From Verrucomicrobiota bacterium (lineage in GTDB: Bacteria; Verrucomicrobiota; Verrucomicrobiia; Limisphaerales; CAIMTB01): a stretch of DNA of 64,000 nucleotides. The stretch spans positions 6,465-70,464 of the forward strand of contig CAUJJW010000111.1 in the NCBI GenBank assembly GCA_963205105.1, given 5' to 3'. The notes under the pieces are model-generated. The model worked only from the letters and a program-made list of their open reading frames with translations, was not told where the DNA came from and did no database searches. How positions within the stretch are numbered: the first letter of the stretch is position 1; each line of letters begins with the position of its first letter. This document shows, piece after piece, positions 8,618 through 62,974 of this stretch. The position numbers were made by a program, and so were the translations under genes.

Positions 8618-10213
8618 ATGGACCCGCTTTCCTCCCTCTCGAACCTGCCCCGGCTCGCCGCGGGCGTCGTTCTGGAGTGCGACGTCGCCCGACGCGAGCT
8701 CATCCGCGCCGGCATCCAAGCCTGGCAGGATTCAGACACCAGCCTTCCCACGATCCCCTGGCTCGGTCCGGTCCAACTCAGCTGGCGCTACTATCTCGCC
8801 TCCAAGAAACAACAGCTTCTGCTGTCGTTCCGGCGACGGCCCGAGCAAATCGACATCGCCCTCGACTCCAGCCTCCGGTTCCGGGTGGAACCCAGCCCTC
8901 TCCCCGTCCCGTCCCTGTCCGGTTCTTCGACGACGCCACCCGCCCCTGCTGAATCCGTGCCGCCCCTACCCGCGAACGGCGGTTCCGTAGCGGCGGGCGT
9001 CTCGCCTGCCGTAGAGGGGGGCGTCCCCCCCCCCGGAATCCCCTCCAGTTCAACACCTCCCAGTAAGACGTCGCCATCGTCCGCTCCTCCCATCAGCAGG
9101 CTCTCCTGGCCACAGTTCCTCGGGCCGTCCTCCCCGAACCTCGCCGTCTTCCATCTCCGACATCGATCCGACCGCCGACGACTCGAGCTCCCGATCCTCA
9201 AGGATGCCATTCACTTCCCGGCCGCACGTTTGTTCCAGGGCGACGACTCCATCCCGTTGCAGCAGGGCAACGCGTTGCTGCTGGAACCCTTGGTCGACTG
9301 GATTCAGACCATCGGTGCCTGGAAACGCGACCCCGACGCAAACTCCTCATGGCGGCCCCTAACTCCTCCGGCCGACCAGGAATCGCTGCCTGCCCGCCGC
9401 ATCCTGGCGTCGATCGTGGGGACGTATCAGGAAGCCTGCCAGGCCGCGGCCAACCGTTCCCCGGGCCCGCTCCCACCCCCGCCGGACGCCGTCGATCCGT
9501 TGCCTCACGGCCAAACCATCGCCGAGTTTACCGGCATGACCTGGCTTCGACTGCAAGCGGATGGCACCGCCATTGCGGAGAAAGGCTCCGACGACACCAC
9601 CACGCTGGAAATGCGCTACAACCTCGAACACGAAGACGGCCGTGACCGCCTCGACGTTCGACTGCAACCGCCCGACTTCCTGATCTCTGGCGACCTCCAC
9701 CGCCAGATCCTCAGCACCGTCGGCCAGGCCGCCCTGGATGCGAACTGGCACCGACCCAACGGACCCCTGGGCCGGGGCACCGGGGTCTCGGAGCAGGAAG
9801 TGCAAGACCTGTTCGCCCATGCCGACGCCACGGTCCTCCGCATTGAACGAAGGCGCGATCGCGACCGGGACCTGATCCTTCTCCGCGGCTCGCTCCAGGG
9901 CGTTCAGGTCTGGGTGGTCCTCACCGCTTGGCTGGCCGTTGGAAAACCGACCGACCGACAGCAGCCCAAGACCCGAACCCTGTTCGTCTCACCACCCCCC
10001 CCACCCGCTGGCCACCAAGGCCACGGCGGTCCCGATCTCGTCAACACGTTCGACAAGAACAACGACGCGATGACCTGCCTCTTCGTGGGTGAACGATTCA
10101 CCGACGACACCGTGGTTCCCGCCAGCGTCGCGAAGTCCTTCGGTCGGATCATGCTCGCCATGCATCGCTGGGGCGGGATCTGGCCGCCCACCGAAACCAT
10201 GTCCTCCCCATGA
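8618..10213 (+). CDS. Hypothetical protein, orphan operon gene 4 (531 aa), carrying an in-frame RepA insertion
   Basis: The N-terminus LAAGVVLECDVARRELIRAGIQAW followed by VQLSWRYYLASKK echoes genes 1-3. A Pro/Ser-rich linker includes repeat-encoded SVAAGVSPAVEGGVPPPGIP. The TGA stop lies inside the CATGAACC terminus of RepA copy 10209-10290. No catalytic or NTP-binding motifs seen. Confidence 0.7.
   Translation: MDPLSSLSNLPRLAAGVVLECDVARRELIRAGIQAWQDSDTSLPTIPWLGPVQLSWRYYLASKKQQLLLSFRRRPEQIDIALDSSLRFRVEPSPLPVPSLSGSSTTPPAPAESVPPLPANGGSVAAGVSPAVEGGVPPPGIPSSSTPPSKTSPSSAPPISRLSWPQFLGPSSPNLAVFHLRHRSDRRRLELPILKDAIHFPAARLFQGDDSIPLQQGNALLLEPLVDWIQTIGAWKRDPDANSSWRPLTPPADQESLPARRILASIVGTYQEACQAAANRSPGPLPPPPDAVDPLPHGQTIAEFTGMTWLRLQADGTAIAEKGSDDTTTLEMRYNLEHEDGRDRLDVRLQPPDFLISGDLHRQILSTVGQAALDANWHRPNGPLGRGTGVSEQEVQDLFAHADATVLRIERRRDRDRDLILLRGSLQGVQVWVVLTAWLAVGKPTDRQQPKTRTLFVSPPPPPAGHQGHGGPDLVNTFDKNNDAMTCLFVGERFTDDTVVPASVAKSFGRIMLAMHRWGGIWPPTETMSSP
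8981..9053 (+). repeat. RepA copy inside the CDS of orphan-operon gene 4 (in-frame)
   Basis: GGTTCCGTAGCGGCGGGCGTCTCGCCTGCCGTAGAGGGGGGCGTCCCCCCCCCCGGAATCCCC. It is translated as SVAAGVSPAVEGGVPPPGIP. Confidence 0.85.
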
Positions 10214-11490: not shown

Positions 11491-11682
11491 AAGCTCTTCG
11501 TTTGAATTGGGGATTTTGCCCGGAATAAACAACTTCTGACAAGGTTCCGTTCGGTTCGTTCAAGATGCCCCACGCTTGCCGCATTCCTCCACTCTGGTAT
11601 CCACGCCAACATCATCACGCGATCCATCCCCTTTCTGATCGGCCTGTTCGCCTCGGCGACCGCCCTCCAGGCGGCATCCACG

Positions 11683-13131
11683 GTGGCGTGGCCGCAGTTC
11701 CGAGGCCCCAATGGCCAGGGTTTCGCACCCCACGCCCAACCTCCCCTCCAGTTCGGGCCCCACACGAATCTTGCCTGGCAGGTGCCCATCGACCCCGGCC
11801 ATTCGTCACCCGTCGTCTGGGAGTCCTCCATTTTCCTGACCACCTACCAGACCGGCCAACTCGCCGTCGTCGCCATCGAACGGGCCACCGGCGCGTCCCG
11901 CTGGCAGTGGTCCGTCCCCGCCGGCCCAATCGGCGATGTTCATTCGATCAGCAGTCCTGCCGCCCCTACTCCCGCGGCGGATGACTCCCAGGTGTTCGCC
12001 TACTTCGGCTCGTGGGGCCTCGTCGCCCTCACCCACGCCGGCAAGGAATCGTGGCGCCATCCCATGCCGCCGCCTCGGAACCGATACGGCATGGCCACTT
12101 CTCCCGTGCTCCACGGCACCAACGTCATCCTGGTCCTGGACGCCGATGACCTTCAGTCCCGCGTGGTCGCCTTCTCCAAGACCACGGGAACCATCGCCTG
12201 GCAGACCGAGCGCCCCGGCCAGCGCGCCAACTGGTCCACACCCGCCATCTGGTCCCCGGAAATCCCCAACGACCCGCAGCATCCCGAGCAACTGATCGTG
12301 CTCAGCGCCCTCCGTCTGGCGGCCTACGACGTCCGCACCGGCGGCGAACTGTGGTCCGTCGATGGTTTCCCTCAGGAGACCGTCTCGGTTCCCGCGGTGG
12401 GCCGGACGCTGGTGTTCGCCGGGGCGGCGGCCCTGGGCGGACGAGGCAACGAGACCTACGACGCGATGGGCTGGCAGCAGTTGAAGGCGTTCGATCGGAA
12501 TGGCGACGAACGCGTGCAGGCCGACGAAATTCCCGACGATTTCCGCATGGTGCTTCGACCCGACCTGCCCAAGGAACACCCGGGCTACGCCGTGCCCTTC
12601 GCCTTCAAACGGGGATTCAAGGGCAACGACCTCGATGCGGACGGCGCGCTGAGCGAGTCGGAATGGAACCAGAACGTGATCCGCTGGGAGGCGTCCAGCC
12701 GGCCGGTGCTCATGGCGATCGACCCGGGCACAGGTGCTTCCGCCCCGACCGAGCGGGTGGCGTGGAAAACCAACCGCGGGCTTCCCGAGATGCCTTCCAT
12801 CCTGCTGGAGCGGGAGCGCAATCGGCTGTACTTCGTGCGCGATGGCGGGCTGCTCACCTGCCTGGACGCCTCCACCGGACGGTCCATTTTCCAGGAGCGC
12901 ATCGGCGCGGCCGGCGGGTACGCCGCCTCACCCGTCGCCACCCCGGGCCACCTCTTCCTCACCTCCGCCGCCGGCGTCGTCACCGTGGTCGACACGCGCT
13001 CGGACGACTTTCGCGTCATTGCCCGAAATGATCTGCAGCAGTCCATCCACGCCACACCTGCGCTGGCAGGAAACGGGATCTATATCCGCACCGCCGGACG
13101 GCTGATGGCCTTCACCCAGCCGCGGTCCTAG
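11683..13131 (+). CDS. PQQ-like (BamB-like) beta-propeller repeat protein; true start probably upstream
   Basis: WPQFRGPNGQG...SSPVVWESSIFLTT, plus repeated propeller blades (AYDVRTGGELWS, LTCLDASTGRSIFQ, GIYIRTAGRLMAF). The track start is a GTG, but a signal-peptide-like sequence is encoded in-frame upstream. Confidence 0.75.
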   Translation: MAWPQFRGPNGQGFAPHAQPPLQFGPHTNLAWQVPIDPGHSSPVVWESSIFLTTYQTGQLAVVAIERATGASRWQWSVPAGPIGDVHSISSPAAPTPAADDSQVFAYFGSWGLVALTHAGKESWRHPMPPPRNRYGMATSPVLHGTNVILVLDADDLQSRVVAFSKTTGTIAWQTERPGQRANWSTPAIWSPEIPNDPQHPEQLIVLSALRLAAYDVRTGGELWSVDGFPQETVSVPAVGRTLVFAGAAALGGRGNETYDAMGWQQLKAFDRNGDERVQADEIPDDFRMVLRPDLPKEHPGYAVPFAFKRGFKGNDLDADGALSESEWNQNVIRWEASSRPVLMAIDPGTGASAPTERVAWKTNRGLPEMPSILLERERNRLYFVRDGGLLTCLDASTGRSIFQERIGAAGGYAASPVATPGHLFLTSAAGVVTVVDTRSDDFRVIARNDLQQSIHATPALAGNGIYIRTAGRLMAFTQPRS

Positions 13132-25860: not shown

Positions 25861-26140
25861 CCCCGTAGCGGCGGGCGGGATGGCTGTCGCTACCAAGAGC
25901 CTGGCTGCTTCTTGGCCGTCGCGGAGCGACGAACGAAGGTAGCCGGGCCTTTCAAGGCCCGGATTCACGGTGCCTGCCAAGGCAGCGTCGCGGAGCGACG
26001 CTTGAATCCGTGTTGCCGCGTGGGTCTGGCGGCGCTCCATGCGCTGGAGTCAACCGTCGCTCCGCGACGGCGCCTCTTTGCTCAAATCCGTCCAGGCGTT
26101 GAAACGCCTGGCTACCTTGGATTGTCGCTCCGCGACACCG
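25861..26140. repeat. RepA fragment (25861-25880) plus RepH: four 13-nt palindromes at ~69-nt spacing with hairpin-rich spacers
   Basis: GTCGCGGAGCGAC at 25918 and 25987; GTCGCTCCGCGAC at 26056 and 26124 (spacing 69, 69, 68). The spacer of unit 1 (AAGGTAGCCGGGCCTTTCAAGGCCCGGA) is an inverted copy of the spacer of unit 3 (TCCAGGCGTTGAAACGCCTGGCTACCTT). Confidence 0.8.
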
Positions 26141-32954: not shown

Positions 32955-33350
32955 GGGAATCCGGGGGGCGAGACGCCCCCCTCTACGGCAGGCGGGACGC
33001 CCGCCGCTACGGACGAACCGTTCCGGTGAAGGCCCGGAGGGCCGAAAGAACGGAAGCCCATGGCGTTAGCCATGGGTGGCGAGTTGAATGGTGTTTCGAG
33101 CCCCGGAGGGGCGACAGAACCGCCCGCGTTGGGGTTACTTTCGGGGTAACCGACGACGCTCAGCCCTGACCCTTCCTTTCTGATCGCCCCTCCGGGGCTT
33201 TGGGCTTCCCTCAGGCCTTGTCCCCACGGCTCACGCCGTGGGCTAGGGTTCTCCCGCCCCGTCCGGGGCTGGGGAATCGATCGGCTCACTGGTGATGCAC
33301 CGTCGGGGAATCCGGGGGGTGGGGGAGCCTGTTTCAACCCTCGCGAGGGC
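32955..33350 (-). repeat. Composite RepA(-) 32955-33022, RepFb 33035-33125, RepFa 33181-33285, RepB fragment 33315-33350
   Basis: The same A-Fb-Fa order occurs at 50649-50940, and inverted at 54695-55015. Here it lies between the two cistrons of the M16 peptidase pair. Confidence 0.85.
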
Positions 33351-45823: not shown

Positions 45824-45987
45824 ATCTCCGTGTCGTCGGAGGACACAGCCCTCTATTGGACAGGATGAACACGATGAACAGGATGAAATGCCGTTCCGCT
45901 TGGGTTCCTGAGCATCCTGTTCATCGTGTGCATCCTGTCCAAAACCCTCTGATACTTGGAGATCTCCCATCCACAACACGGAGATAC
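45824..45987. mobile_element. RepG copy 2 (palindromic MITE-like element)
   Basis: GGACAGGATGAACACGATGAACAGGATGAAATGCCGTTCCGCTTGGGTTCCTGAGCATCCTGTTCATCGTGTGCATCCTGTCC with outer arms. It is the reverse complement of copy 1 at 2986-3147. Confidence 0.75.
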
Positions 45988-49188: not shown

Positions 49189-49220
49189 ACCGGCAAAACA
49201 AGATTCTTTCCGTCAACTCC

Positions 49221-50654
49221 ATGAACCTCCTGCCGCAACACATCGCCGGATTCTTGGTTGTCCTCGCAACGTCCCAACTCGCGCTGGCCCCCGAGTCACA
49301 CGGCGCGGATGCCGAAGACGGGTTTCGGCCCATCTTCGACGGCCGCTCCCTGGCCGGCTGGGAAACCCCGGAGGGCCGTTACTGGACCATCGAGGACGGC
49401 GCCATCACCGGTCGCATCACCCCGGAGCAGCCGTGCACCATCAACCAGTACCTGGTCTGGACCGGCGGCGAACTGGCCGATTTTGAACTCAAACTAAAAT
49501 CCCGCCTGAACGGCCAGGGCGGCATCAACAACGGCTTTCAGTTCCGCAGCCGGCTGCTCCCCGACCACGACGTCTGCGGCTACCAGGTCGACAACAACCT
49601 CCAAACCCCCTGGCTGGTCCGCCTCTACGATGAGTTCGGACGCCACACCCTCGCCATGCGCGGGGAACGCGCCGCGTTCAACGCCCTGAACCAACGCACC
49701 GCCTCCCCGCTCCCCGAATCGGCCGGAACCGCATGGTTCAAGTTGGAGGAATGGCACGAGTACCACCTCGTCTGCCGCGGTTCCCGAATCTCCCTGCACG
49801 TCGATGGACGTCTCGCGGCTGAGGTCGACGACCACGACCCGCACCGTGCCGAGGCCCAGGGCATTCTCGCGCTCCAGCTTCACAGCGGTCCGCCCACCGT
49901 CGTGCAGTTCAAGGACATCCGGCTCAAGATCCTGAAACCGGCCGCCTCGCCGACTCCTCCGCCAACAGTCTCGCCCGCCCTGGAACGTCTCCAACAGGAA
50001 GCAGTGGCCTGGTGGTCGCTCGACACCGGTGGCCACGGGGCCAAACCACCGCTCCGCCACATTCCCGGGTGGGACCAGTTCGAACTCAACGTTCGCCCGT
50101 CCGGACCCGGCGCCCGCGCCAACACCAAAATTGTCACCCTCGACGGAGCCCACTTCGAAACTGAACCCTCGTTCCCCCTGACCTCCGGCCCCTTCACGGT
50201 CTTCATCCGCGCGTTTCAACCGAAAGGCCCTTGGAACGCCGCCCTGCTTGCGAAACCAGGCCAGGACGGCACCGCCGGATTGCGATGGTTCTTCGATGAC
50301 CTTCCCGAGACCCCCGGCCCCGACCTGGTCCTTGAGCTCGGCGGACCCGCTGGAAAAGCCAGCGTCCACGCGCCGCTGATGTCGACGAACCCGGCCGCTT
50401 GGATGGACTTGGTGGCCCGTTGCGACGGCAGAACGCTGGCGCTGTTCATCGACGGTGAACGCCGGGCTTCAGCCGAAGGGTCGGGGTCCTGGAACAGTTC
50501 CGGTCAACCGCTGCTGCTGGCCGCGGAGCGTCAAGGCGATCGGGTGGTGCGGCACGTTCGCGGCGAGATGGAGACCACAGCGGTCTGGTCCCGGGCGTTG
50601 AGCGACGAGGAGATCCGGACCCTGACTCAACCGGCACGCGGTGAAGGACCATGA
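49221..50654 (+). CDS. DUF1080 (3-keto-disaccharide hydrolase-like) plus LamG/concanavalin-like domain protein
   Basis: Start MNLLPQHIAGFLVVLATSQLALA (signal peptide) at a CTCCATGAACC motif. FRPIFDGRSLAGWE...WTIEDGAITG...LQLHSGPPTVVQFKDIRLK is the DUF1080 pattern. The C-terminal half is LamG-like. Confidence 0.75.
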   Translation: MNLLPQHIAGFLVVLATSQLALAPESHGADAEDGFRPIFDGRSLAGWETPEGRYWTIEDGAITGRITPEQPCTINQYLVWTGGELADFELKLKSRLNGQGGINNGFQFRSRLLPDHDVCGYQVDNNLQTPWLVRLYDEFGRHTLAMRGERAAFNALNQRTASPLPESAGTAWFKLEEWHEYHLVCRGSRISLHVDGRLAAEVDDHDPHRAEAQGILALQLHSGPPTVVQFKDIRLKILKPAASPTPPPTVSPALERLQQEAVAWWSLDTGGHGAKPPLRHIPGWDQFELNVRPSGPGARANTKIVTLDGAHFETEPSFPLTSGPFTVFIRAFQPKGPWNAALLAKPGQDGTAGLRWFFDDLPETPGPDLVLELGGPAGKASVHAPLMSTNPAAWMDLVARCDGRTLALFIDGERRASAEGSGSWNSSGQPLLLAAERQGDRVVRHVRGEMETTAVWSRALSDEEIRTLTQPARGEGP

Positions 50655-50940
50655 ATGGGGGACTCCGGGGGGCGAGACGCCCCCCTCTACGGCAGGCGGG
50701 ACGCCCGCCGCTACGGAGGCCCGGAGGGCCGAAAGAACGGAAGCCCATGGCGTGAGCCATGGGTCGGAAGTCGAAATGGATTTCGAGCCCCGGAGGGGCG
50801 ACAGAACCGACCGCGTTGAGGTTGGTTTTTAGGGAAAGTCACGACATTCGGCCCTCTCCCTGCATTCCTGATCGCCCCTCCAGGGCTTTGGGATTCCCGC
50901 AGGCGCAGTCCCCAGGACTCACCGCCCCCTCGCCCAAACC
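50649..50940 (-). repeat. Composite RepA(-) 50649-50716, RepFb 50717-50810, RepFa 50868-50935
   Basis: The terminal ccATGAAtgg contains the TGA stop (50652-50654) of the DUF1080/LamG gene. RepFb hairpins are GGCCCGGAGGGCC and CCCATGGCGTGAGCCATGGG. Confidence 0.85.
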
Positions 50941-50992: not shown

Positions 50993-51745
50993 ATGGGCCG
51001 CCCAACGGAACACACACCTCCCTCCAGCCAGTCCCCGGCGCCCCCGCCTCCCTTCTCAACCACCACCCCCCACGACGAACCCGTGGTCCTCGCCTCCAAC
51101 GTGGAGAAGGCCTACGAGGGCCGCCCAGTCCTCCGAGGCGTTTCCGTCTCGGTCAGGGCCGGAGAACGCGTGGCCTTGATCGGTCCTTCCGGCAGCGGCA
51201 AGACCACCCTGCTCAACTGCCTCGGGGGTGTCGACCGCCCCGACCAGGGTTCCATCCGCATCCGCCAGGAGTCGCTGGAGACTCTCGACAGCGCCGGCTT
51301 GGCTCGCCTTCGACGATTCCATGTCGGGACGGTGTTCCAGTTCTTCCACCTTCTTCCCACCCTCAACGCCTTCGAAAATGTCGAACTTCCCCTCCAACTG
51401 ATCGGCGTTCCCCCCGCCGAACGCGAGGAGCGCGTGAACCGTCTGCTCACCCGGGTCAAGGTCGAGCATCGCGCCCACGCACGACCCGCACAGTTGTCGG
51501 GAGGTGAACAACAACGGATCGCCATCGCCCGAGCCCTGGTCCACCGGCCCGCCGTGCTGCTCGCCGACGAACCCACCGGCAATCTCGATTCCGTCAATGG
51601 CGCCAATGTGCTCGCCCTCCTGCGCGAACTCACCGACGAAACCGGCACTGCTCTCGTCCTGGTCACCCACAGCCCCGAAGCCACCGCCATCTGCCACCGG
51701 GTGGTCGCCCTCCGCGACGGATGCGTCGTCGACTCCCCTCACTGA
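50993..51745 (+). CDS. ABC transporter ATP-binding protein (MacB/LolD/AttE-like)
   Basis: Walker A GPSGSGKTTLLN, Q-loop, signature LSGGEQQRIAIARAL, Walker B VLLADEPTGNLD, H-loop VTHS. Confidence 0.9.
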   Translation: MGRPTEHTPPSSQSPAPPPPFSTTTPHDEPVVLASNVEKAYEGRPVLRGVSVSVRAGERVALIGPSGSGKTTLLNCLGGVDRPDQGSIRIRQESLETLDSAGLARLRRFHVGTVFQFFHLLPTLNAFENVELPLQLIGVPPAEREERVNRLLTRVKVEHRAHARPAQLSGGEQQRIAIARALVHRPAVLLADEPTGNLDSVNGANVLALLRELTDETGTALVLVTHSPEATAICHRVVALRDGCVVDSPH

Positions 51746-51756
51746 GTCCAGTCCGG

Positions 51757-54495
51757 ATGAATCCCTTCGCCCATCTCGGACTCCTCTGGCGCCGCTTCAC
51801 CCTGCGCCATTGGAAGGACACACCCGGACAGACCTTCCTGCTGGTCCTGATTCTCGCGCTCGGCATCGCGGTTTACTTCTCCATCCGCCTCGCCAACCGC
51901 GCCGCCACCGCCAGCTTCCTGCACTTCACCGACCTGGTGACCGCCGAGAGCGACTGGCTGATCCAGGCCCCCGCCGGCGACCTCCCCGAGTCCGTGCTCG
52001 CCGAACTGCGATCCCGCCTCGACGGCGCTCCAGTCCACCTGGTGCCCATCGTGGAATCCACCGCCACCGCCCCGCCCAAGGGCGAACCGGAAACCATCGG
52101 CAGCCGTCCCACCTTCCGCCTGCTCGGCGTGGATCTCATCGGCATCCAAAACATCGCCCGTGATGAAGCCGAACGTTCCCCGGACTGGTTCGGCCCGGGA
52201 AACAAAGCAGCCCCTTCCACGACCGACGTCCCATCCGTCCCATCGGTCCCATCTTCCCACACCAACGCCACCCCTGACTCAGAATCTCGGTTCTGGACTG
52301 TTCTGCGCGACCCCACCTCCGTCTTTATCAGCGACGCGCTCGCGCGCCGTGACGGTCTGGCGGCCGGCAGTCGTCTGCCTCTCATTCTCAACGAAACCAT
52401 CGTCCCGCTCACCGTGGCCGGCGTCATCCCAGCTCTCCCCGGCCAACCTGCCGCACCCCCCGAGTTGTTGGTCATGGACCTGCCCGCCTTGCAGCATTGG
52501 ACCGGAAGAACCGGACTCCTCACCCGCCTTGAATTCCGGGTGGAACCCGGCCCCAACGCGGAAGGACGCCGAAGCCAACTGCGGGACGACTTGGAAACCT
52601 GGGGACGATCCACCCATTCCACCGACGCCGCACGTTGGCTGGTCCGATCACCCTCGGAACGTCGCGACGCCGGCGCCGTCATGACCCGGGCGTTTCGCCT
52701 CAACCTCACCATTCTCTCCCTCCTGGCCTTGCTCGTCGGCATGTACCTGGTGGTCCAGGCCCTCGATGGCGCCGTGGTCCGTCGGCGTGCAGAAATTGGC
52801 GTACTCCGCTCGCTAGGCGTCGAGGCGGCCACCCTGCGACGCGCCTGGCTGCTCGAAGCGGGCGTGGTCGGTGTGCTGGGCGGTCTGCTCGGCGTGCTCC
52901 TCGGCTGGGCCGGCGCCCAAGCCTCCGTCCGGCTCGTCGGAAAAACCGTCAACGCCCTCTACTACGCCACCAGCGCCGATTCCGCCGCACTTACCCCGGG
53001 GGAACTCGCCGGCGCCCTCGTCCTGTCCGTGACCTCCGCCTTGCTCGCCGGTTGGTGGCCTGCCCGCGTCGCCGCCAACGTGCCCCCCGCCCAGCTGCTC
53101 GCCCGACACGCCCAATCCGCACCCGCCGCCTGGGCCCTCCAACATCCCTTTCTCGGCCTTGGCCTGATCCTGGCCGGAATCGCCTGCGCCATGCTCCCTC
53201 CGCTGCGCTTCGACGGCGGTGTCCGGTTTCCCGCCGGCGGCTACGCCGCCGCCGTGCTCTGGATCGCCGGCGCCGGTATCCTCGGCAGCCGCGCTTTGTC
53301 CGGCGCCGCACGCGTGCTTCGACCGCTCGGACGTCATGCCGCCGTGTGGCGCTTGGGCATCAGCCCCTTGATCACCCCGTCCGGCCGTCACGTGCTCGCC
53401 ACCGCCGGCCTGATCTGCGCCGTCGCCATGACCGCCGGCATGGTCATTCTCGTCGGAAGCTTCGACCGCACCATGCGCGGGTGGATCGAACGAACGTTCC
53501 AGGCCGACCTGTACGTCTCGAGCGCCGGCGCCCAAAGCGCTTCCACCGACAACCGCCTTTCCCCGGCCACCTGGAAGGCACTCATCGAAGACCCGGCCGT
53601 CGCCGACGCCAATGTGCTCCACGGCATTGAAGTGCTGCTCCCGGGCGGCACCACCATTCTTGCCGCTGGCGATCTCGGGTTCCTGCGTCGACGCGTCCAA
53701 CTCGCTTGGGTCGAGAAACCCACCGACCTGAATGCCGCCTTCGCAGCCGCTCCCCTGGCGGATGGCCAACCAGTCTCCGCCCTGGTCAGCGAAAGCTTCT
53801 CGGAACGGTTCCAACAGCACCGTGGCGACCTGGTGAACCTGCCCACACCGTCGGGCAGCAAAAGCGTTCGCATCGCCGGGGTGTTCGCCGATTACGGCAA
53901 CGAACGCGGCTCCCTGGTCATTGACCGTGGCCTGTTCGTGGAGTGGTTCAAGACCGACCTGGCGGCGAGTGTCATCGTCTCATTGCGCGACCCGGCGCAG
54001 GCGGAGGCCGTTCGGTCGGCGTGGCTGGCGAAGCACCCGGGGCTTCAGATCCTGACCAACGGCCATCTGCGCACGGAGGTGTTGCGGATCTTCCGTCAGA
54101 CGTTCTCGATCACCTACGCCCTCGAAGCCATCGGACTGACCGTGGCGGTGTTGGGCCTGGGCATGACCCTGGCGAGTGTGCTGATCGAACGACGGGCGGA
54201 CTGGACCACGCTGAGGGCGCTGGGCTTGCGACCGGAAGAACTGGCCCGGGTGGCGGCGATTGAAGGCCTGGTGGTCGCCGCGGCGGGTCTCCTGGTGGGA
54301 CTCGCGGTTTCCAGCGCCTTGGGATGGCTGTTGATCCGGGTCATCAACAAACAAACCTTCGGGTGGACCTTGGAGTTTGCCGCGCCGATGGGCCCGCTGG
54401 TGCTTCTGGCGTTGCTCGTGTTGGCGGGCGCCACCTCGGTGAGTTATGCCGTCGGTCGCTGGGGCGCTCAATTGCCCGCGGACCGCGAGGAATGA
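51757..54495 (+). CDS. ABC transporter permease with two FtsX-like domains (MacB/AttF-G-like)
   Basis: Start MNPFAHLGLLWRRF. Two blocks of four TM segments, each preceded by a large extracytoplasmic region. Has the typical FtsX-domain loops (GVLRSLGVEAATL, LRALGLRPEEL). Confidence 0.85.
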   Translation: MNPFAHLGLLWRRFTLRHWKDTPGQTFLLVLILALGIAVYFSIRLANRAATASFLHFTDLVTAESDWLIQAPAGDLPESVLAELRSRLDGAPVHLVPIVESTATAPPKGEPETIGSRPTFRLLGVDLIGIQNIARDEAERSPDWFGPGNKAAPSTTDVPSVPSVPSSHTNATPDSESRFWTVLRDPTSVFISDALARRDGLAAGSRLPLILNETIVPLTVAGVIPALPGQPAAPPELLVMDLPALQHWTGRTGLLTRLEFRVEPGPNAEGRRSQLRDDLETWGRSTHSTDAARWLVRSPSERRDAGAVMTRAFRLNLTILSLLALLVGMYLVVQALDGAVVRRRAEIGVLRSLGVEAATLRRAWLLEAGVVGVLGGLLGVLLGWAGAQASVRLVGKTVNALYYATSADSAALTPGELAGALVLSVTSALLAGWWPARVAANVPPAQLLARHAQSAPAAWALQHPFLGLGLILAGIACAMLPPLRFDGGVRFPAGGYAAAVLWIAGAGILGSRALSGAARVLRPLGRHAAVWRLGISPLITPSGRHVLATAGLICAVAMTAGMVILVGSFDRTMRGWIERTFQADLYVSSAGAQSASTDNRLSPATWKALIEDPAVADANVLHGIEVLLPGGTTILAAGDLGFLRRRVQLAWVEKPTDLNAAFAAAPLADGQPVSALVSESFSERFQQHRGDLVNLPTPSGSKSVRIAGVFADYGNERGSLVIDRGLFVEWFKTDLAASVIVSLRDPAQAEAVRSAWLAKHPGLQILTNGHLRTEVLRIFRQTFSITYALEAIGLTVAVLGLGMTLASVLIERRADWTTLRALGLRPEELARVAAIEGLVVAAAGLLVGLAVSSALGWLLIRVINKQTFGWTLEFAAPMGPLVLLALLVLAGATSVSYAVGRWGAQLPADREE

Positions 54496-54496
54496 A

Positions 54497-55352
54497 CGCG
54501 ACCATGAACAGCGAACGGGGATTGGCGAATCGCGAATCGCGAAAAGCGGGCTCCTCCGTAGCGGCGGGCGTCCCGCCTGCCGTAGAGGGGGGCGTCTCGC
54601 CCCCCGGAATTCCAGGTTCATGGTTCCTAAGCGCGAGTTGTCATTCGTGGATGCCCCACAGGAACACCATCTTTTCGCCAGCCACGGAGTGGCGCCAGAA
54701 CCCTAGCCCACGGCGTGAGCCGTGGGTGCCACGTGAAGAATGGATTCAGCCCCGGACGGGGCGATCAGAATCCCCCGATCGGGGCTCCACCCCATCCAAC
54801 CTCCCGGTGACGCGTTGCTATGTGGCGTTTCTGGCCGCCCCTCCGGGGCTCCATTTCCCACGGCACGCCCGACCCATGGCTGACGACATGGGCTTCCGTT
54901 CTTTCGGCCCTCCGGGCCTCGCAGATCACCCCTTCTCCATCAACCTGGCCTTCGTAGCGGCGGGCGTCCCGCCTGCCGTAGAGGGGGGCGTCTCGCCCCC
55001 CGGATTCCCCCAGGATTTACGATCGGTGAGCAGGTCGGTTTCTAACAGCGCGCTGATCATCAACCTTCCCATGCAAGCGATCGCGAGGGTTGAAAACAGC
55101 TCCCTCACCCCAACCCTCTCCCGGCGGGAGAGGGAGTCGCGTTTCACCCGCCACAGCTGCCCACATGGCCATGCGTCCGAGCCGTCCCGACTCGTTCCAG
55201 CCAACCCCAGGCTCAACCCTCCTGGAACCGCGGCGCATGTTCTCCTTCTCCCTCCGGGAGAAGGCCGGGATGAGGGCCGCCCGCTCCACTCCTCGCGCCA
55301 CGGTTCACGGTCCCCTGGTGTGTCCCCATGTTGGCAAACATCGCGCCCCATG
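54497..55352. repeat. ~850-nt repeat island: RepA(+) 54553-54625, RepFa(-) 54700-54790, RepFb(-) 54830-54925, RepA(+) 54950-55015, RepD-like 55020-55062, RepB(+) 55056-55310, RepJ 55302-55352
   Basis: All modules match copies elsewhere in the window. The island separates the FtsX permease gene from the AttH-like gene. The final CCCCATGAACC supplies the AttH-like start codon (55350). Confidence 0.85.
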
Positions 55353-56657
55353 AACCCGATACCCCAAATCTTCCTGCTCTCGTTCCTGCTCGCCCTGATT
55401 CCCTGGACCTCCGCCTTCGCTGCGGCCCCGTTCGCCGAACCCACCCCGGAGTCACCCCTCGCTCTCCGTACCCCGGACGGATTCGCCGTGCCCCAACCCG
55501 GTCGGGTTTTCCGGTTCCCGGAGGATCACGGCAGCCACCCGGAGTTCCGCATCGAGTGGTGGTACATCACCGGCCATCTGTGGAACGGCGCCAGCAACCG
55601 GTTCGGTTTCCAGTCGACCTTCTTCCGCACCGCCGGCCCGCCACCCGCCTCTACCAGCCAAGGGCTTCCCATGAACCTGCCTTCCGTAGCGGCGGGCGTC
55701 CCGCCTGCCGTAGAGGGGGGCGTCTCGCCCCCCGAATTGCCCGGTTCAAGGGCCGTGAGCCGGTCGGTTTCGAACAGGGAACTCTCCAGGAGCAGCGCGT
55801 TTGGAACCGATCAGCTGTTCCTGTCCCATTTCGCCCTGCTCGACGTGGGCACGGGACGTTTCCGCCACCAGGAACGCCTGAACCGCGAGGGATGGTCCGC
55901 CGGCGCTTCCGTCTCCAACCTGAACGTCTGGAATGGCGGAGGTTCGCTGGAACTCACCAACAGCCAGGAAGGCGTTCAACTCCGCTTGCGCAGCCACCTC
56001 CGCGCCGAAGCGTCGTGGGATTTGAAGCTCACCCCCACCAAACCCTTGGTGGTCTTCGGGACCAACGGCGTCTCGCGCAAAGGCGCCACCGACACCGCCG
56101 CCAGTCATTACCTCACCTTCCCGCGCCTCCACATTGATGGACTCCTGGAGATCGATGGCGCCAGCCGTCCCGTTCACGGCATTGCCTGGATGGATCACGA
56201 ATTCAGCAGTAGCCAGCTCGCTCCCGACCAGACCGGCTGGGATTGGGCCGCCATTCAATTGCATGACGGACGCGAGATCATGACCTACCGCATGCGGCGC
56301 AAGGACGGTTCCACCGATCCGTTCTCCACCCTGGCCTGGGTCGAACGCGACGGGCGCATCACCCACCTGTCCTCCACCCAGTTCACGCTGGAACCCCGGT
56401 CCCGCTGGAAAAGCCCGCGCTCCGGTGGCGAATACCCACAAGGGTTGACCCTCCGATCCCGTGACCCGGCCACCGGCGCTCCCGTCACATTTCAACTCGT
56501 GCCCCTCGCCGCCGACCAGGAATTGCCCGGATCCATCGGCGAGGTGCCCTATTGGGAAGGCGCCTGCCGGGTTCTCGACCCTGCAGGAACCGAAGTCGGA
56601 TCGGCCTTCGTCGAACTCACAGGTTATGCCGGGGATCTCGCCGGTCGGCTGCGCTGA
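55350..56657 (+). CDS. AttH/CrtC-like lipocalin-fold protein (hydroxyneurosporene-synthase family), carrying an in-frame repeat insertion
   Basis: Internal ATG MNPIPQIFLLSFLLALIPWTSAFA of ORF 54324..56657, located in a CCCCATGAACC repeat terminus. FPEDHGSHPEFRIEWWYITGHL and WMDHEFSS are AttH-family hallmarks. Residues ~107-147 are encoded by RepA+RepD. Confidence 0.75.
   Translation: MNPIPQIFLLSFLLALIPWTSAFAAAPFAEPTPESPLALRTPDGFAVPQPGRVFRFPEDHGSHPEFRIEWWYITGHLWNGASNRFGFQSTFFRTAGPPPASTSQGLPMNLPSVAAGVPPAVEGGVSPPELPGSRAVSRSVSNRELSRSSAFGTDQLFLSHFALLDVGTGRFRHQERLNREGWSAGASVSNLNVWNGGGSLELTNSQEGVQLRLRSHLRAEASWDLKLTPTKPLVVFGTNGVSRKGATDTAASHYLTFPRLHIDGLLEIDGASRPVHGIAWMDHEFSSSQLAPDQTGWDWAAIQLHDGREIMTYRMRRKDGSTDPFSTLAWVERDGRITHLSSTQFTLEPRSRWKSPRSGGEYPQGLTLRSRDPATGAPVTFQLVPLAADQELPGSIGEVPYWEGACRVLDPAGTEVGSAFVELTGYAGDLAGRLR
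55667..55790 (+). repeat. RepA+RepD inserted in-frame inside the AttH-like CDS
   Basis: tcCCATGAACCtgccttCCGTAGCGGCGGGCGTCCCGCCTGCCGTAGAGGGGGGCGTCTCGCCCCCCGAATTGCCCGGTTCAAGGGCCGTGAGCCGGTCGGTTTCGAACAGGGAACTCTCCAGG. It is translated as PMNLPSVAAGVPPAVEGGVSPPELPGSRAVSRSVSNRELSR. Confidence 0.85.
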
Positions 56658-57789: not shown

Positions 57790-58152
57790 CGCATGGGGTC
57801 GAGGAATCGAACAGCGACGCGTGGAACCGAGGCCCGAAGGGCCGAAATGGCGGCCCTCATCCCAGCCTTCTCCCGGAGGGAGAAGGAGACGATGCTCCGC
57901 GGGTCTCGAAGGGCCAAGCCGGACGTTGGCTGGTGCGATTCGCAACGGCTCGAACGGATGGGGTTCAGGCATGTCACCGAGGCCAGGACGCGACACCCTC
58001 TCCCCCCGGGAGAGGGCCGGGGTGAGGGAGCCCATTTCAACCCTCGCGATGGCTGGCATGGGAGGATTCATGTGCAGCCACCTGTTCGGAATCGACATGC
58101 TCACCGACCATCAGCTGGGGATCCCGGGGGGCGGGACGCCCGCCGCTACAAA
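57790..58152 (-). repeat. Mosaic repeat island: RepFb fragment, truncated RepB(-) 57845-58072, RepD(-) 58064-58112, half RepA(-) 58120-58152
   Basis: Contains GAGGCCCGAAGGGCCGAAA, then a RepB copy lacking its terminus, then GGATTCATGTGCAGCCACCTGTTCGGAATCGACATGCTCACCGACC, then GGGGGGCGGGACGCCCGCCGCTAC (a single hairpin only). Confidence 0.8.
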
Positions 58153-58213
58153 ACCACCCCTTCTTCCCCATTCGCCATTCGCTAGCCCCCGTTCCCACCG
58201 CTTCCGCCCCGCC

Positions 58214-61200
58214 ATGAAACCTTACGCGCCCGCCCTGTTCCTCCTGCTCGGCCTCGCCCTCGGTCCGCTGCTCGCCGCTCAGGCCGCTGACCCAGTCCCC
58301 CTCAACACCCGCTCCCGGGTGCCGTCCCCCACCCAGCCCGACCAAATCCAAATCGTCGAGAAACCCGTGCTCTGGGACCCCGCCCGGACCGCCGTCGTCG
58401 TGTGCGACATGTGGGACAAACACCACTGCCCCGACGCCACCGAGCGGGTCGGGGAAATGGCCCCCCGCATGAACGACGTGCTCAAGTCCGCGCGCGACAA
58501 AGGCATGTTCATCATCCATTGCCCCAGCGACACCCTCCGCTTCTACGAAAACCATCCCGGCCGAAAACTCGCCCAGGCCGCACCCAAGGTCGAACCCCGC
58601 GTCCCCCTTCAAGGCTGGTGCTCCGTCGATGCCACCAAGGAAGCCCCACTGCCCATCGACGACTCCGATGGCGGCTGCGACGGCTGCCCCGAATGCCCCG
58701 GTTATGGCGCGTGGACCCGCCAGCATCCCGCATTGGAGATCCAGGACGGCGACGCCATCACCGACTCCGCCGAGGCCTACTACCTCATGCGGGAGCGCGG
58801 CATCACCAACGTCATCGTCATGGGCGTGCACATCAACATGTGCGTGCTCGGTCGCCCCTTCGCCATCCGTCAGATGGTCGCCCAAGGCCAGAACGTGGTC
58901 CTGATGCGGGACATGACCGACTCGATGTACAACCACCGGAAACGCCCTTACGTCTCCCACTTCCGCGGCACCGGCCTCGTCATCGAACACATCGAACGTT
59001 ACTGGTGCCCCAGCATCACCAGCGCCGATTTCCTCGGCGGCCAACCTTTCCGCTTCCGCGACGACGTCCCCAAGCGCATCGCCGTCGTCATCGGCGAAAA
59101 CGAATACCGCACCCACGAAACCTTGCCGAAGTTCATTCAAGATGAACTCGCCTGGCGCGGCTTCGAAATCTCGTACGTCCAGTCGTCGCCCAAGGACGGC
59201 GATCCTGAGTTCGCCAACATCGAAGCCCTCCGCAACGCCGACCTGGTGCTGGTGAGCGTCCGCCGACGCACCCCTCCCCAGGCGATGCTCGACCTGCTCC
59301 GAGCCCATGTCGCCGCCGGTAAAGCCGTCGTCGGCATTCGCACCGCCAGCCATGCCTTCGATGCAAAACCCGCCGATGCCCAACACGCCGCGTGGCCCAC
59401 CTTCGATGTCGATGTGCTCGGAGCCAAATACGGCGGTCATTACGGCAACAAACCACCCAGCGGGCCCCACACGATCGTCAGCATGGTCCGGTCCAACGCC
59501 TCCCACCTGGTCCTGACCGGCGTGCCCACCGGCGACCTGCGCGTGACCTCTCACCTCTACAAATATGCTTCGCCCGCGGAATCCACGGTTCCCCTGCTCA
59601 CCGGCCGCATCGAAGGCGGCGACGCCGTGGAACCCGTCGCCTGGGTCAACACCGCCGCCGACCGCCGCGCGTTCTACACGTCCCTGGGCAATCCCGAGGA
59701 CTTCGCGTTGCCCGCCTTCCGACGCCTTCTGCTGAACGGGATTCTCTGGTGCCTGCACGAGCCTCCGCCCCCCGCCGACGCGGTGGTGTTCGCCGACCCG
59801 GCAAAACCCGCGGCGTCCATGCCCGCCCCGCCAGCTCCAGCGGCGCCTTCTGCTCCAGCACCCTCCGCGCCGCCCGCGCCCGCCCGCGTCGCCGCACCAC
59901 CTGCGACCCTGGATCTTCCCCAGGAAGCCAAGGCTCCCGCGTTGAGTCCCGCCGAAGCCGCCACCCGGTTTCACGTGGCCGACGATCTCGCCTGGGAATC
60001 CGTGCTCGCCGAACCCGAGATCACCCAACCGGTGTTCCTCAACTTCGACGAACGCGGCCGCATGTGGGTGGTGGAGTACCGCCAATACCCCTGGCCGGCC
60101 GGTCTCAAGATGGTCAGTCGCGACAGCGTCTGGCGGGCCGTCTACGACCGCGTGCCACCCGCGCCGCCCCACCATTTCAAGGGCGCCGATCGCATCAGCA
60201 TTCATGAGGACACCGACGGCGACGGCCCCTTCGACCGGCACAAGACCTTTCTCGACGGCTTGAGCATCGTCACCGCGGTGGAGCGGGGTCGCGGCGGCGT
60301 GTGGGTGCTGAACCCGCCGTACCTGCTCTTCTACCGCGACGCGAACCACGACGACGTTCCCGACGGCGACCCGGAGGTTCGGCTTTCCGGGTTCGGTCTC
60401 GAAGACACCCACAGCGTGGCCAATTCCCTTCGTTGGGGGCCCGACGGTTGGCTGTACGGCGCGCAGGGCAGCACGGTCACGGGGAACATCCTGGTCCACG
60501 GCACCGACGGCCAGCCGCTGAATCCGAAGCCCTTCTATTCGCAAGGCCAGAACATCTGGCGCTACCACCCTGACCGACGTCTGTACGAAGTGTTCTCCGA
60601 AGGCGGCGGCAATGCGTTTGGCGTCGAGATCGACGACCAGGGACGCATCTTCTCCGGACACAACGGCGGTGACACGCGCGGCTTCCATTACCTGCAAGGC
60701 GCCTACCTTCAGAAAGGCTTCGAGAAACACGGTCCACTCTCGAATCCGTACGCGTTCGGTTACTTCCCCCCGATGCCCCACCCCGGGGTCCCCCGCTTCA
60801 CCCACAACTTCGTGATCTACACCCACGGCGCACTGCCCGCGCGCTACCACGGCCGGTTGTTCGGTGTGGAACCCATCCAGGGACGCCTCGTGGAGAGCGA
60901 AATCACCGCGGACCAATCGTCGTTCCGCACCCGTGATGTAACACGCCCGGTCACCAGCGACGACCGCTGGTTCCGGCCGGTTGACATCAAGGTGGGTCCC
61001 GACGGCGCGCTCTATGTCTGCGACTGGTACGACCAACAGGTGAACCACTACCGCAATCATGAAGGCAACATCGACACCTCCAACGGCCGCATCTACCGGC
61101 TCAAGGCCAAAGACTCACCAGCCGCCCGAACGGAAGATCTGTCGCGCCTGACCACCGCCGAACTGCTCCCAAAGCTCAACCATCCCAATCGGTGGACCCG

Positions 61201-62974
61201 ACAGACTGCCCTGCGCCTGCTCGGGGATCGTCGTGACCCGGCCGCTATTCCCGCCCTGTCCGCCTCACTTTCCTCAAACCACACGTCCGTAGCGGCGCGC
61301 GTCCCGCCTGCCGGCGAGGGGAGCGTCTCGCCCCCCGGATCCCAGTCCCGTGTTGGCTCTCCCACTCAATTCGCCCTGGAGAGCTTGTGGGCGTTGCACC
61401 TGTCCGGTGGATGGACCGATTCCATAGCGCTCCAGGCTCTCGATCATTCTGACCCGTTCGTGCGCACCTGGACGGTGCGTCTCCTGGGTGACGAACGGCG
61501 TGTTTCCCCCGGTATCGCCACCCGCCTGGCTGCCCTGGCCGCCACCGAGCCCAACCTCGAAGCCCGCAACCAACTCGCCGCCACCGCCAAACGACTGCCC
61601 GCCCGCGAAGGACTGGCGATCGTCCAGGCCCTCGCTTCGCGGGACGAAGACGTCGCCGACAACCGCATGCCCCTGCTCTTGTGGTGGGCGATCGAAGCCC
61701 AGTGCAATGACCACCGGGACAACGTGCTCGCACTCTTCGCCGACCCCGCCTTCTGGAGCCGGCCGCTCGTGGAATCCCATCTCCTGGATCGGACCATGCG
61801 CCGCTTCGCCCAGTCGGGCACACGCCGGGATCTCCTGACCTGTTCCCAACTCTTCGCCCTCTCGCCCACACCGACTCATAGCCGCCGCCTCATGATGGGC
61901 TTCGAAACAGCCTTTAAGGGACGCGCCCTCACCGGTTTCCCCGTGGAACTCGTCCAGGCCATGGCCCGACACCAGGTTGGCTCCGCGGCCTTTGCCCTCC
62001 GCCAAGGTGACCCCCGCGCCATCCGCAGGGCCCTGCAGGTGGTCGCCGACGAAACCGCGCCGCGCAACGAACGCCTCGAATTCTTCGGCGTCATGAGTGA
62101 GGTCAAGGTGCCCGGCGCGGTTCCCGTCCTGACCAAGGCCTACCGCGGCGTGGTGAAGGACGACGGCCTGCGCAAGGCCATCCTCTCCGCCTTCCAGAAC
62201 CAGGACGACCCCGCCATCGCGGAAGTGGTGCTGGGGGTGTACGCCGCGCTGGGCAAGGAGGCATTGCCCACCGCCCAGACCTTGCTGGCCAGCCGACCTG
62301 CTTGGGCGCTGCGATTCGTTCAGGCCCTCCAACCCAAAGGCTCGTCGTGGGCTCTGCCCGGGATCCGGCGCGACTCCATCCCACCCAGCATCGTTCGCAA
62401 ATTGAAACAGCACCGCGACCCCGAACTCCTGCGACTTGCTGAAGCGACCTGGCCCAACACCGGTTCCCCCACCACCGCCGAGATGGAGAAGAAGATCCAG
62501 CAGTTTGCCGGCATCCTACGCGCCGACTCGGGCGATCCGTATGCGGGTCGAACTCTCTTCCAGAACGCCTGCGGCTCCTGCCACAAGCTCTTCGGACAAG
62601 GCGCCGAAGTGGGACCCGATCTGACGGTTCACGACCGCGCCAACCTTGAGTCCATGCTGCTCGCGATCGTCCATCCCAGTGCGGAGATCCGCGAAGGTTT
62701 CGAGAATCACTCGATCGAAACCCGGGACGGCCGTTCCCTCTCGGGCTTCCTCGTGGAACAGGACGATCGGATCATCGTCCTCCGCGGTCTCGACAACCAG
62801 AACACCACCCTGGCCCGCGCCGATCTGGAGGAACTCAGCGTCTCGGGATTGTCCCTGATGCCGGAGGGCTTGCTCGACAGTCTCGACGCCCAACAGGTCC
62901 GCGATCTGTTCGCCTACCTGCGCAGCACCCAGCCACTCGTCGGCGACCCACCCCGGCGCGCCGCGACGCGCTAA
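58214..62974 (+). CDS. Giant multidomain protein: isochorismatase-like, ThuA-like, membrane-bound-dehydrogenase-like beta-propeller, HEAT repeats and cytochrome c (PVC-type heme-binding CxxCH protein)
   Basis: Internal ATG MKPYAPALFLLLGLALGPLLAAQA of ORF 57821..62974. Domain order follows. VVVCDMWDKHHCP...VIVMGVHINMCVLGRPF is cysteine-hydrolase/isochorismatase-like. KRIAVVIGENEYRTHETLP is ThuA-like. DDLAWESVLAEPEITQPVFLNFDERGRMWVVEY is dehydrogenase-like. HEAT repeats come next. The C-terminal segment is CGSCHKLFGQGAEVGPDL. Confidence 0.8.
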   Translation: MKPYAPALFLLLGLALGPLLAAQAADPVPLNTRSRVPSPTQPDQIQIVEKPVLWDPARTAVVVCDMWDKHHCPDATERVGEMAPRMNDVLKSARDKGMFIIHCPSDTLRFYENHPGRKLAQAAPKVEPRVPLQGWCSVDATKEAPLPIDDSDGGCDGCPECPGYGAWTRQHPALEIQDGDAITDSAEAYYLMRERGITNVIVMGVHINMCVLGRPFAIRQMVAQGQNVVLMRDMTDSMYNHRKRPYVSHFRGTGLVIEHIERYWCPSITSADFLGGQPFRFRDDVPKRIAVVIGENEYRTHETLPKFIQDELAWRGFEISYVQSSPKDGDPEFANIEALRNADLVLVSVRRRTPPQAMLDLLRAHVAAGKAVVGIRTASHAFDAKPADAQHAAWPTFDVDVLGAKYGGHYGNKPPSGPHTIVSMVRSNASHLVLTGVPTGDLRVTSHLYKYASPAESTVPLLTGRIEGGDAVEPVAWVNTAADRRAFYTSLGNPEDFALPAFRRLLLNGILWCLHEPPPPADAVVFADPAKPAASMPAPPAPAAPSAPAPSAPPAPARVAAPPATLDLPQEAKAPALSPAEAATRFHVADDLAWESVLAEPEITQPVFLNFDERGRMWVVEYRQYPWPAGLKMVSRDSVWRAVYDRVPPAPPHHFKGADRISIHEDTDGDGPFDRHKTFLDGLSIVTAVERGRGGVWVLNPPYLLFYRDANHDDVPDGDPEVRLSGFGLEDTHSVANSLRWGPDGWLYGAQGSTVTGNILVHGTDGQPLNPKPFYSQGQNIWRYHPDRRLYEVFSEGGGNAFGVEIDDQGRIFSGHNGGDTRGFHYLQGAYLQKGFEKHGPLSNPYAFGYFPPMPHPGVPRFTHNFVIYTHGALPARYHGRLFGVEPIQGRLVESEITADQSSFRTRDVTRPVTSDDRWFRPVDIKVGPDGALYVCDWYDQQVNHYRNHEGNIDTSNGRIYRLKAKDSPAARTEDLSRLTTAELLPKLNHPNRWTRQTALRLLGDRRDPAAIPALSASLSSNHTSVAARVPPAGEGSVSPPGSQSRVGSPTQFALESLWALHLSGGWTDSIALQALDHSDPFVRTWTVRLLGDERRVSPGIATRLAALAATEPNLEARNQLAATAKRLPAREGLAIVQALASRDEDVADNRMPLLLWWAIEAQCNDHRDNVLALFADPAFWSRPLVESHLLDRTMRRFAQSGTRRDLLTCSQLFALSPTPTHSRRLMMGFETAFKGRALTGFPVELVQAMARHQVGSAAFALRQGDPRAIRRALQVVADETAPRNERLEFFGVMSEVKVPGAVPVLTKAYRGVVKDDGLRKAILSAFQNQDDPAIAEVVLGVYAALGKEALPTAQTLLASRPAWALRFVQALQPKGSSWALPGIRRDSIPPSIVRKLKQHRDPELLRLAEATWPNTGSPTTAEMEKKIQQFAGILRADSGDPYAGRTLFQNACGSCHKLFGQGAEVGPDLTVHDRANLESMLLAIVHPSAEIREGFENHSIETRDGRSLSGFLVEQDDRIIVLRGLDNQNTTLARADLEELSVSGLSLMPEGLLDSLDAQQVRDLFAYLRSTQPLVGDPPRRAATR
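61285..61345 (+). repeat. Degenerate RepA inside the giant CDS (in-frame, in the HEAT-repeat region)
   Basis: GTCCGTAGCGGCGCGCGTCCCGCCTGCCGGCGAGGGGAGCGTCTCGCCCCCCGGATCCC, translated as SVAARVPPAGEGSVSPPGS. Confidence 0.75.

Follow-up and report, generated by a model that had tools for sequence, protein, structure and literature searches.

The DNA studied here, called the window below, is a 64,000-nt stretch of a Verrucomicrobiota genome of the Limisphaerales lineage (contig CAUJJW010000111.1, positions 6,465 to 70,464, assembly GCA_963205105.1), and the gene of interest in it encodes a protein of the AttH/CrtC-lipocalin family that carries, in frame, one unit of an interspersed repeat. We think it highly probable that this insert is a passenger, a piece of selfish DNA tolerated in a variable loop of an AttH-family gene that still functions. 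An earlier note on this DNA had seen the insertion of a complete repeat unit in the coding sequence (CDS), between the segments FQSTFFR and QLFLSHFALLD and with the family motifs on both flanks intact. The presence of the unit in the CDS is confirmed by an alignment without gaps of the AttH segment to intergenic copies of the same unit, from the window and from unrelated contigs, and by a reading frame that is open across 55667-55790. The intact flanks are seen both in the sequence and in the alignment of homologs.

The repeat unit inside the AttH-like gene

The unit is a composite of 2 modules, named A and D, whose parts are located in Table 1. The earlier note had put the insert at about 41 codons (55667-55790); a repeat unit is indeed there, and the comparison with intergenic copies sets it at 126 nt, or 42 codons, from 55669 to 55794. 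The same note took the unit to be complete with its terminus, which holds at the 5' end, where the 9-mer CCATGAACC is intact, but not at the 3' end, where the degenerate terminus CCAGGAGCA (55786-55794) has 3 mismatches to the consensus CCATGAACC. Between them lies the 49-nt core of the repeat, GTAGCGGCGGGCGTCCCGCCTGCCGTAGAGGGGGGCGTCTCGCCCCCCG, which in the AttH copy has no mismatch to the family consensus.

Codons 107-147 of the gene (nt 55668-55790) translate as PMNLPSVAAGVPPAVEGGVSPPELPGSRAVSRSVSNRELSR, a peptide rich in Gly, Ala, Pro, Val, and Ser that is predicted to be disordered. A tryptic peptide across the insert would have about 41 residues.

That the open reading frame (ORF) stays open is true, as had been pointed out, but taken alone it says little about function, because the unit is a multiple of 3 nt long, 4 of its 6 frames lack a stop codon, and the intergenic copies upstream of AttH are open as well. 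Intergenic copies in the window and in unrelated metagenome contigs measure 83 nt for A and 126 nt for A+D, the latter in 7 complete copies that were measured between their termini and that all lie outside AttH. Hence the length divisible by 3 belongs to the element as such and did not arise by selection on the AttH copy, and AttH is read through because of the element's own length and sequence.

The host protein and its loop

The assignment of the host protein to the AttH/CrtC-lipocalin family is based on 3 kinds of evidence. Pfam finds PF07143, the CrtC N-terminal lipocalin domain, with E = 1.7e-41, the match being broken into 2 stretches by the insert, and PF17186 (Lipocalin_9) with E = 1.1e-36. 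The AlphaFold model, made from a 121-sequence alignment, has a mean predicted local distance difference test (pLDDT) score of 87.3, and it matches Protein Data Bank (PDB) ID: 2ICH, the "putative AttH" of Nitrosomonas europaea, with E = 4.8e-28 and a template modeling score (TM-score) of 0.93 on the target. Upstream there are genes for an ABC ATPase and an FtsX/MacB permease, in an order shared with 2 relatives, the contigs L001 and L002, so that the gene lies in a conserved att-type operon context. The family is a large one (more than 5000 homologs were found), and the N-terminus of the host protein resembles a signal peptide.

Only 2 of the 121 aligned homologs have the insert, namely the window protein and P0001, which are 94% identical and closer to each other than to any other homolog aligned. 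Between FFRTAGP and AFGxDQLFL the window protein has a loop of 52 residues and P0001 has the same insert, whereas the next relatives have 13-15 residues at 78-79% identity (P0002 and P0003) and 15 residues at 72% identity (P0004), and 2ICH, at 30% identity, has about 6. These loops were compared in codon alignments, as a MAFFT DNA alignment of a short slice of L002 was misleading. One unrelated homolog, P0092, has a loop that is 16 residues longer at the position of the insert, and hence the position tolerates changes in length.

In the model, residues ~101-150 have a pLDDT of about 50 and lie between strands 83-95 and 155-165, which places the insert between beta-strands 2 and 3 of the N-terminal lipocalin-like domain, in a loop whose length varies naturally. 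The suggestion of the earlier note that it forms an extra surface loop thus stands as far as a disordered and variable loop is concerned, in the alignment as in the model, with its exposure at the surface a probable feature.

Selection and age of the insertion

P0001 is encoded on L001, an independently assembled 57-kb metagenome contig from the Joint Genome Institute (JGI), where the insert occurs at the same codon with substitutions of its own. The insertion is therefore older than the split between the 2 genomes, and is not an artefact of assembly. We compared the window gene with its L001 ortholog by the method of Nei and Gojobori, obtaining nonsynonymous (dN) and synonymous (dS) substitution rates for the 2 parts of the gene separately. 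The conserved parts (339 codons) have dS 0.236 and dN 0.019, for a dN/dS of 0.078, and the insert (41 codons) has dS 0.12 and dN 0.06, for a dN/dS of about 0.5, counted from 4 synonymous changes and 5 non-synonymous ones. Purifying selection on the host gene has been strong ever since the insert was gained, and the insert is far less constrained than its host at the protein level. Besides this ratio, the residues that are invariant in the family are all kept and the operon context is conserved, which bears out the earlier view that the gene is probably still functional.

Explanations for the insert

The explanation we favor is that one 126-nt composite unit, made of module A with its dimer of repetitive extragenic palindromes (REPs) and of module D, and belonging to a lineage-specific family of interspersed repeats, landed in the DNA for a length-variable loop of a secreted AttH-family protein. 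This would have happened after the split from the P0002/P0003 lineages and before that between the window and L001, and the unit would have been carried since. Its length and its stop-free frames would have kept the reading frame automatically. The protein would keep its fold and presumably its function, with a disordered peptide added, and the insert itself would be neutral. Several points weigh against this explanation. The translation of the insert and the activity of the protein are presumed, and the exposure of the loop is deduced from its low pLDDT and variable length. Between the window and L001 a single position of the 49-nt core has changed although dS is 0.24, a near-identity that could come from selection on the hairpins or from gene conversion among copies, the counts being too small to decide. 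No target-site duplication is visible at the AttH junctions, at those of a related insert in another ortholog (P0006, below), or at those of a repeat cluster at 50656-50934, and a Pfam scan of ~45 ORFs of the window reveals neither a REP-associated tyrosine transposase (RAYT; Pfam Y1_Tnp) nor any other transposase. Mobilization of the unit may have relied on a tyrosine transposase of the RAYT type, or on recombination at the 9-mers.

The most serious rival to a tolerated passenger is exaptation, in which selection keeps the insert as a functional peptide loop, or as mRNA hairpins that regulate translation or mRNA stability in the att operon. The insert has been kept in 2 lineages at a dS of ~0.24 with both hairpin stems unchanged, all 3 copies that lie in a CDS use one reading frame, and 8 of the 9 core copies that can be scored are in the sense of local transcription, all of which would suit such a role. 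Set against this, the dN/dS of the insert is ~0.5 compared with 0.08 in the rest of the gene, the other 2 copies in a CDS are decaying through stem and GTAG mutations, the peptide is predicted to be disordered, and the fold of the 141-nt RNA is unexceptional next to its shuffles (z = -1.0), while gene conversion among the many genomic copies can explain the conservation of the core. Exaptation is thus possible but unsupported, and we consider it quite unlikely. The remaining readings are effectively excluded. A decaying pseudogene, open only since a GC-rich repeat has no stops, would agree with the AttH frame being open through 2 upstream intergenic copies (as a 777-aa ORF) and with the 4 open frames of the unit, but it is made very improbable by the low dN/dS over 339 codons since the insert-bearing lineages parted, by the retention of all the family-invariant residues, and by the conserved operon. 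Repeats do break short-read assemblies, and most of the metagenome matches end at a copy, so one might suspect that a copy was wrongly joined into the gene; the presence of the insert at the same codon in a contig from another sample, together with junctions that are both in frame and flanks that are colinear, leaves next to no room for this. Just as hard to credit is an ancestral loop, lost elsewhere, with the interspersed copies derived from the AttH segment, given that the 2 of 121 homologs that have it are each other's closest relatives, that the segment is identical to the consensus of a mainly intergenic family, and that this family also occurs in unrelated contexts on other contigs.

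Table 1. Positions in the window of the AttH-like gene, its insert, and other repeat features
Feature	Position	Strand	Evidence or remark
AttH-like/CrtC-lipocalin CDS, host of the insert	55350..56657	+	435 aa + stop; Pfam, homologs, fold
In-frame insert, one composite A+D unit, 126 nt = 42 codons	55669..55794	+	Gap-free alignment to intergenic A+D copies
Module A, 83 nt	55669-55751	+	
5' terminal 9-mer of module A, CCATGAACC, intact	55669..55677	+	Terminus comparison
REP dimer core, 49 nt, 2 tandem GTAG-tagged hairpins	55686..55734	+	Zero mismatches to family consensus
First hairpin, GTAG + CGGCGGGCG-TCC-CGCCTGCC(G)	55686-55709	+	
Second hairpin, GTAG + AGGGGGGCG-TCT-CGCCCCCC(G)	55710-55734	+	
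Central 9-mer GGTTCAAGG, inverted copy of the terminus, common to modules A and D	55743..55751	+	
Module D, degenerate 3' terminus	55743..55794	+	Repeat families D8/D9 and alignment
ABC ATPase gene and FtsX/MacB permease gene, 5' of AttH	50993..54495 (50993-51745; 51721-54495)	+	Pfam
2 intergenic core copies between the permease gene and AttH	54537..55069 (54558-54606; 54954-55002)	+	Open in AttH frame
Second in-frame copy, module A only, ~27 codons, NHTSVAARVPPAGEGSVSPPGSQSRVG	61268..61357	+	Repeat family D3; ortholog comparison
Third in-frame copy, GSVAAGVSPAVEGGVPPPGIPSS, in low-complexity linker of ORF 8618-10213	8966..9037	+	3-mismatch core match
Acido-Lenti-1 (RF01687) matches	25917-25962, 33030-33076, 50717-50763, 54680-54726	-	Rfam

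Architecture of the repeat family

The 49-nt core occurs in 13 copies at no more than 3 mismatches in the window, where shuffles lead one to expect 0.00, and there is a fourteenth, more diverged copy at 61268-61339. Eleven of the 14 lie outside verified CDS, and every one of them is a dimer. GTAG stands before both palindromes; it is invariant in an 8-sequence alignment and present in 12 of the 13 core matches, the other having GTAA. The hairpin stems are of 10 bp and 8 bp, with 3-nt loops TCC and TCT. As DNA, the core folds at -21.9 kcal/mol (z = -4.9; none of 200 shuffles folds as well), and both of its hairpins recur in the RNA centroid structure of the insert. A larger composite RNA structure across the insert is not claimed, as the RNA fold of the whole 141 nt is no better than that of shuffles. 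The core is a head-to-tail heterodimer of GTAG-tagged REPs in a fixed arrangement and with no spacer.

Around this core, module A is bracketed by CCATGAACC and its inverted copy GGTTCATGG/GGTTCAWGG in 12 copies, and it is followed by further modules, among them D and D', which terminate in another CCATGAACC. These amount to terminal inverted repeats, as in miniature inverted-repeat transposable elements (MITEs), and the extended terminus motif CTCCATGAACC is enriched, with 18 occurrences in the window at no more than 1 mismatch against 1.55 expected.

The family is dynamic, as L001 lacks 2 of the repeat clusters of the window, those at 50656-50934 and at 55009-55367. The first of these, of 280 bp, contains an antisense core copy, an Acido-Lenti-1 match, and other modules. 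The corresponding empty site in L001 (3631-3645) reads GGACCGTGAAC|AGACCCC and contains CCGTGAAC, so that a terminus-like 8-mer is already there, which points to a preferred target or to recombination at the 9-mer.

Orientation can be scored for 9 core copies, those located between genes of a unidirectional pair or in a CDS, and the GTAG strand is the sense strand of local transcription in all except one. That sole antisense copy (50666-50714) is the one missing from L001.

The repeat itself corresponds to no Rfam family, and Rfam matches only the Acido-Lenti-1 RNA motif (RF01687), beside some of the copies. It does so 4 times on the minus strand, above the gathering score, with 38-41 bits, and at least 3 of the 4 matches are inside or beside repeat clusters. 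In this genome the Acido-Lenti-1 motif may be another module of the mosaic repeat rather than a stand-alone small RNA gene.

Outside the window, when 185,579 species-representative genomes are scanned for an exact 45-mer, 1 match appears, in a contig labeled as a Dermatophilaceae metagenome-assembled genome (MAG). This 670-kb contig (JBAOHL010000003.1), assigned by its label to the Actinomycetota, has a complete A+D unit (L005 1794-1927), and the 8-kb stretch around it has 65% G+C, like the window. A scan of metagenomes for the repeat gives 11 short contigs, most of them ending in the repeat. The full-text literature search with the core and terminus strings returned unrelated primer sequences only. 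Searching a protein database with the 41-residue peptide that the repeat encodes gave 2 short hypothetical proteins and missed P0001, so it is uninformative as a census.

Other copies inside genes

Two more copies of the repeat in the window are read in frame. The one at 61268-61357 is in a ThuA/DUF7133/HEAT/cytochrome c protein of 1,6xx aa, directly after the HEAT_2 match. It is present in the L001 ortholog and absent from that of L002, and it is drifting from the consensus, with mutations in stem and GTAG that mark it as decaying. The other belongs to ORF 8618-10213 (531 aa), which has no Pfam match, has 79 homologs, and has a coding pattern of G+C at third codon positions (GC3) except across the repeat; its distant homologs are without ~45 residues at the repeat position. 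All 3 copies in a CDS, including that of AttH, use the SVAAGVPPAVEGGVSPP frame (SVAAGVxPAVEGGVxPPG), which yields a small-residue, proline-rich peptide, and none uses the alternative frame rich in Arg and Cys. With 3 cases, this use of one frame is only suggestive. Peptidase M16 ORFs that span core copies were considered as further cases and rejected, since the repeats there precede both the first residue of the domain and the start codon that is probably the true one.

An independent insert is found in P0006, the AttH ortholog of another verrucomicrobial MAG (L017 1642-1827, GCA_038325245.1). It has 46 residues, is in frame, and is located in another loop than the window insert. At the DNA level it has CCCATGAACC ... 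CGGTTCATGG ... CCCATGAATC as its bounds, with a different internal payload.

A wider reading of these data is that the cassettes bounded by CCATGAACC and GGTTCATGG are an undescribed class of modular mosaics in Limisphaerales-type Verrucomicrobiota, with interchangeable payloads, integration at CCATGAAC-like sequences, and recurrent remodeling of proteins; we offer it tentatively and think it more doubtful than not. The payloads would include the head-to-tail dimer of GTAG REPs, module D or D', the payload of P0006, and Acido-Lenti-1-like hairpins. Integration would include gene starts, where the ATG of the cassette would become the start codon, and proteins would gain loops, linkers, and N-termini, with a filter leaving copies in a CDS in one orientation and one frame.

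Relation to known repeats

The GTAG and CGTC superfamilies of REPs were defined by Di Nocera et al. 2013 (BMC Genomics 14:522, PMC3733652). GTAG REPs occur in the Planctomycetes-Verrucomicrobia-Chlamydiae (PVC) superphylum, and the intragenic ones are most numerous in the verrucomicrobium Opitutus terrae, which is named 70 times in Additional file 3 of that paper, for example for GTAG-19, encoding GTGVPPV (PMC3733652). Dimers or groups that encode 20-30 residues account for over half of the intragenic inserts, while REP-encoded regions of 43-82 residues are given for Thauera and R. conorii, whose Rickettsia palindromic elements RPE-4 and RPE-6 belong to CGTC families (PMC3733652). The idea in the earlier note that palindromic repeats inside a CDS are undescribed in PVC bacteria is therefore mistaken, as the intragenic GTAG REPs of O. 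terrae had already been reported.

The family found here has the features of GTAG REPs. It consists of short, G+C-rich, imperfect palindromes that form stem-loops, each after a GTAG at one end. The copy number is high, and the copies are interspersed, mostly intergenic, and arranged as dimers, with a minority in frame in genes of known function, where they add 20-30 residues or more, and the host phylum, Verrucomicrobia, is shared. Even the encoded peptide is similar, as GTGVPPV of O. terrae GTAG-19 is near the AGVPPAV encoded here. Known GTAG REPs are thought to be mobilized by RAYT tyrosine transposases, whereas no RAYT is seen in the 64-kb window. Two further differences are the fixed head-to-tail heterodimer with no spacer, and the location of that dimer within 83-nt or 126-nt modules, bounded by CCATGAACC/GGTTCAWGG and joined to D, D', and others.

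RPEs (Ogata et al., cited in PMC3733652) are selfish palindromes found in frame in many unrelated genes whose proteins are apparently functional. The earlier note compared the AttH insert to them, and the comparison is a good one for its behavior: it is in frame, has 42 codons, lies in a variable loop of low pLDDT, a position that the fold appears to tolerate, and has a host gene kept at a dN/dS of 0.078. The sequence family and the host are different, however, with GTAG tags here and CGTC tags in RPE-4 and RPE-6, and the present family is mainly intergenic. We treat the repeat as a functional counterpart of RPEs rather than as a member, host phylum and tag type being different.

MITEs and mosaics of the type of bacterial interspersed mosaic elements (BIMEs), such as Correia/NEMIS, ERIC, and the BIMEs of E. 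coli, also share features with the family. Like it, they have short inverted repeats at their ends, code for nothing, combine motifs in a modular mosaic, cluster at the boundaries of genes, and are present in some close relatives but absent from others. It differs from these elements in that the inverted termini are only ~9-13 nt and the payload is a REP dimer, and neither a duplicated target site nor a partner transposase was identified at the junctions and among the window ORFs examined. The apparent novelty is confined to the sequence family, with no match in the literature and one exact match in the species-representative genomes, together with the head-to-tail dimer arrangement and its embedding in cassettes bounded by 9-mers.

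No new mechanism or class of system is opened by the AttH insert. It does provide a clean and datable case of a REP-type selfish element in an enzyme-like secreted protein, with an outgroup that has the empty site, a sister genome that shares the insert, and purifying selection that can be measured. Intragenic REPs, documented before in O. terrae, are now seen in a second lineage of verrucomicrobia and in a composite unit of 42 codons, a REP dimer joined to a further module. There is also a value for annotation, as repeats that are open in most frames produce spurious N-terminal extensions, long fused ORFs, and broken assemblies.

Gene starts and neighboring genes

The likely start codon of AttH (ATG at 55350) falls within a repeat terminus, CCCCATGAACC, the motif being at 55346-55356, so the ATG of the terminus C(T/C)CCATGAACC is the one that starts the gene. 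The same is seen for a 3-keto-disaccharide hydrolase gene (start 49221; motif 49217-49227), in agreement with the JGI call in L001. In the window, the first residues of the AttH signal peptide have been replaced by the 360-bp cluster 55009-55367, which L001 does not have, giving MNPIPQIFLLSF... in place of MFRLIFLL.... A 777-aa ORF starting at 54324 (54324-56657) was rejected as a gene; it is spurious, its frame being open through the 2 intergenic repeat copies into AttH.

At 57821-58200 repeats add a spurious N-terminal extension (MAGMGGFMCSHLFGIDMLTDHQLGIPGGGTPAATK...) to a large protein whose likely true start is MKPYAPALFLLLGLALG, and the JGI gene call in L001 (10374) accepted this repeat-made extension. 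The Isochorismatase/ThuA and DUF7133/HEAT/cytochrome c parts form one ORF in the window (57821-62974) and in L001, and the same parts are 2 separate genes (574 and 983 aa) in L002 (13755-18459). L001 has a PIN-toxin/antitoxin pair (1448-2186) that is absent at the syntenic point of the window (49191-49205), and L002 has a different PIN_3/ParD pair (11308-11975) just 3' of its AttH gene. An unrelated palindromic repeat, family D12, is present in the window at 3032-3110 and 45860-45938, in opposite orientations, with 9-nt units of the ACAGGATGAACAGGATG type around a central hairpin.

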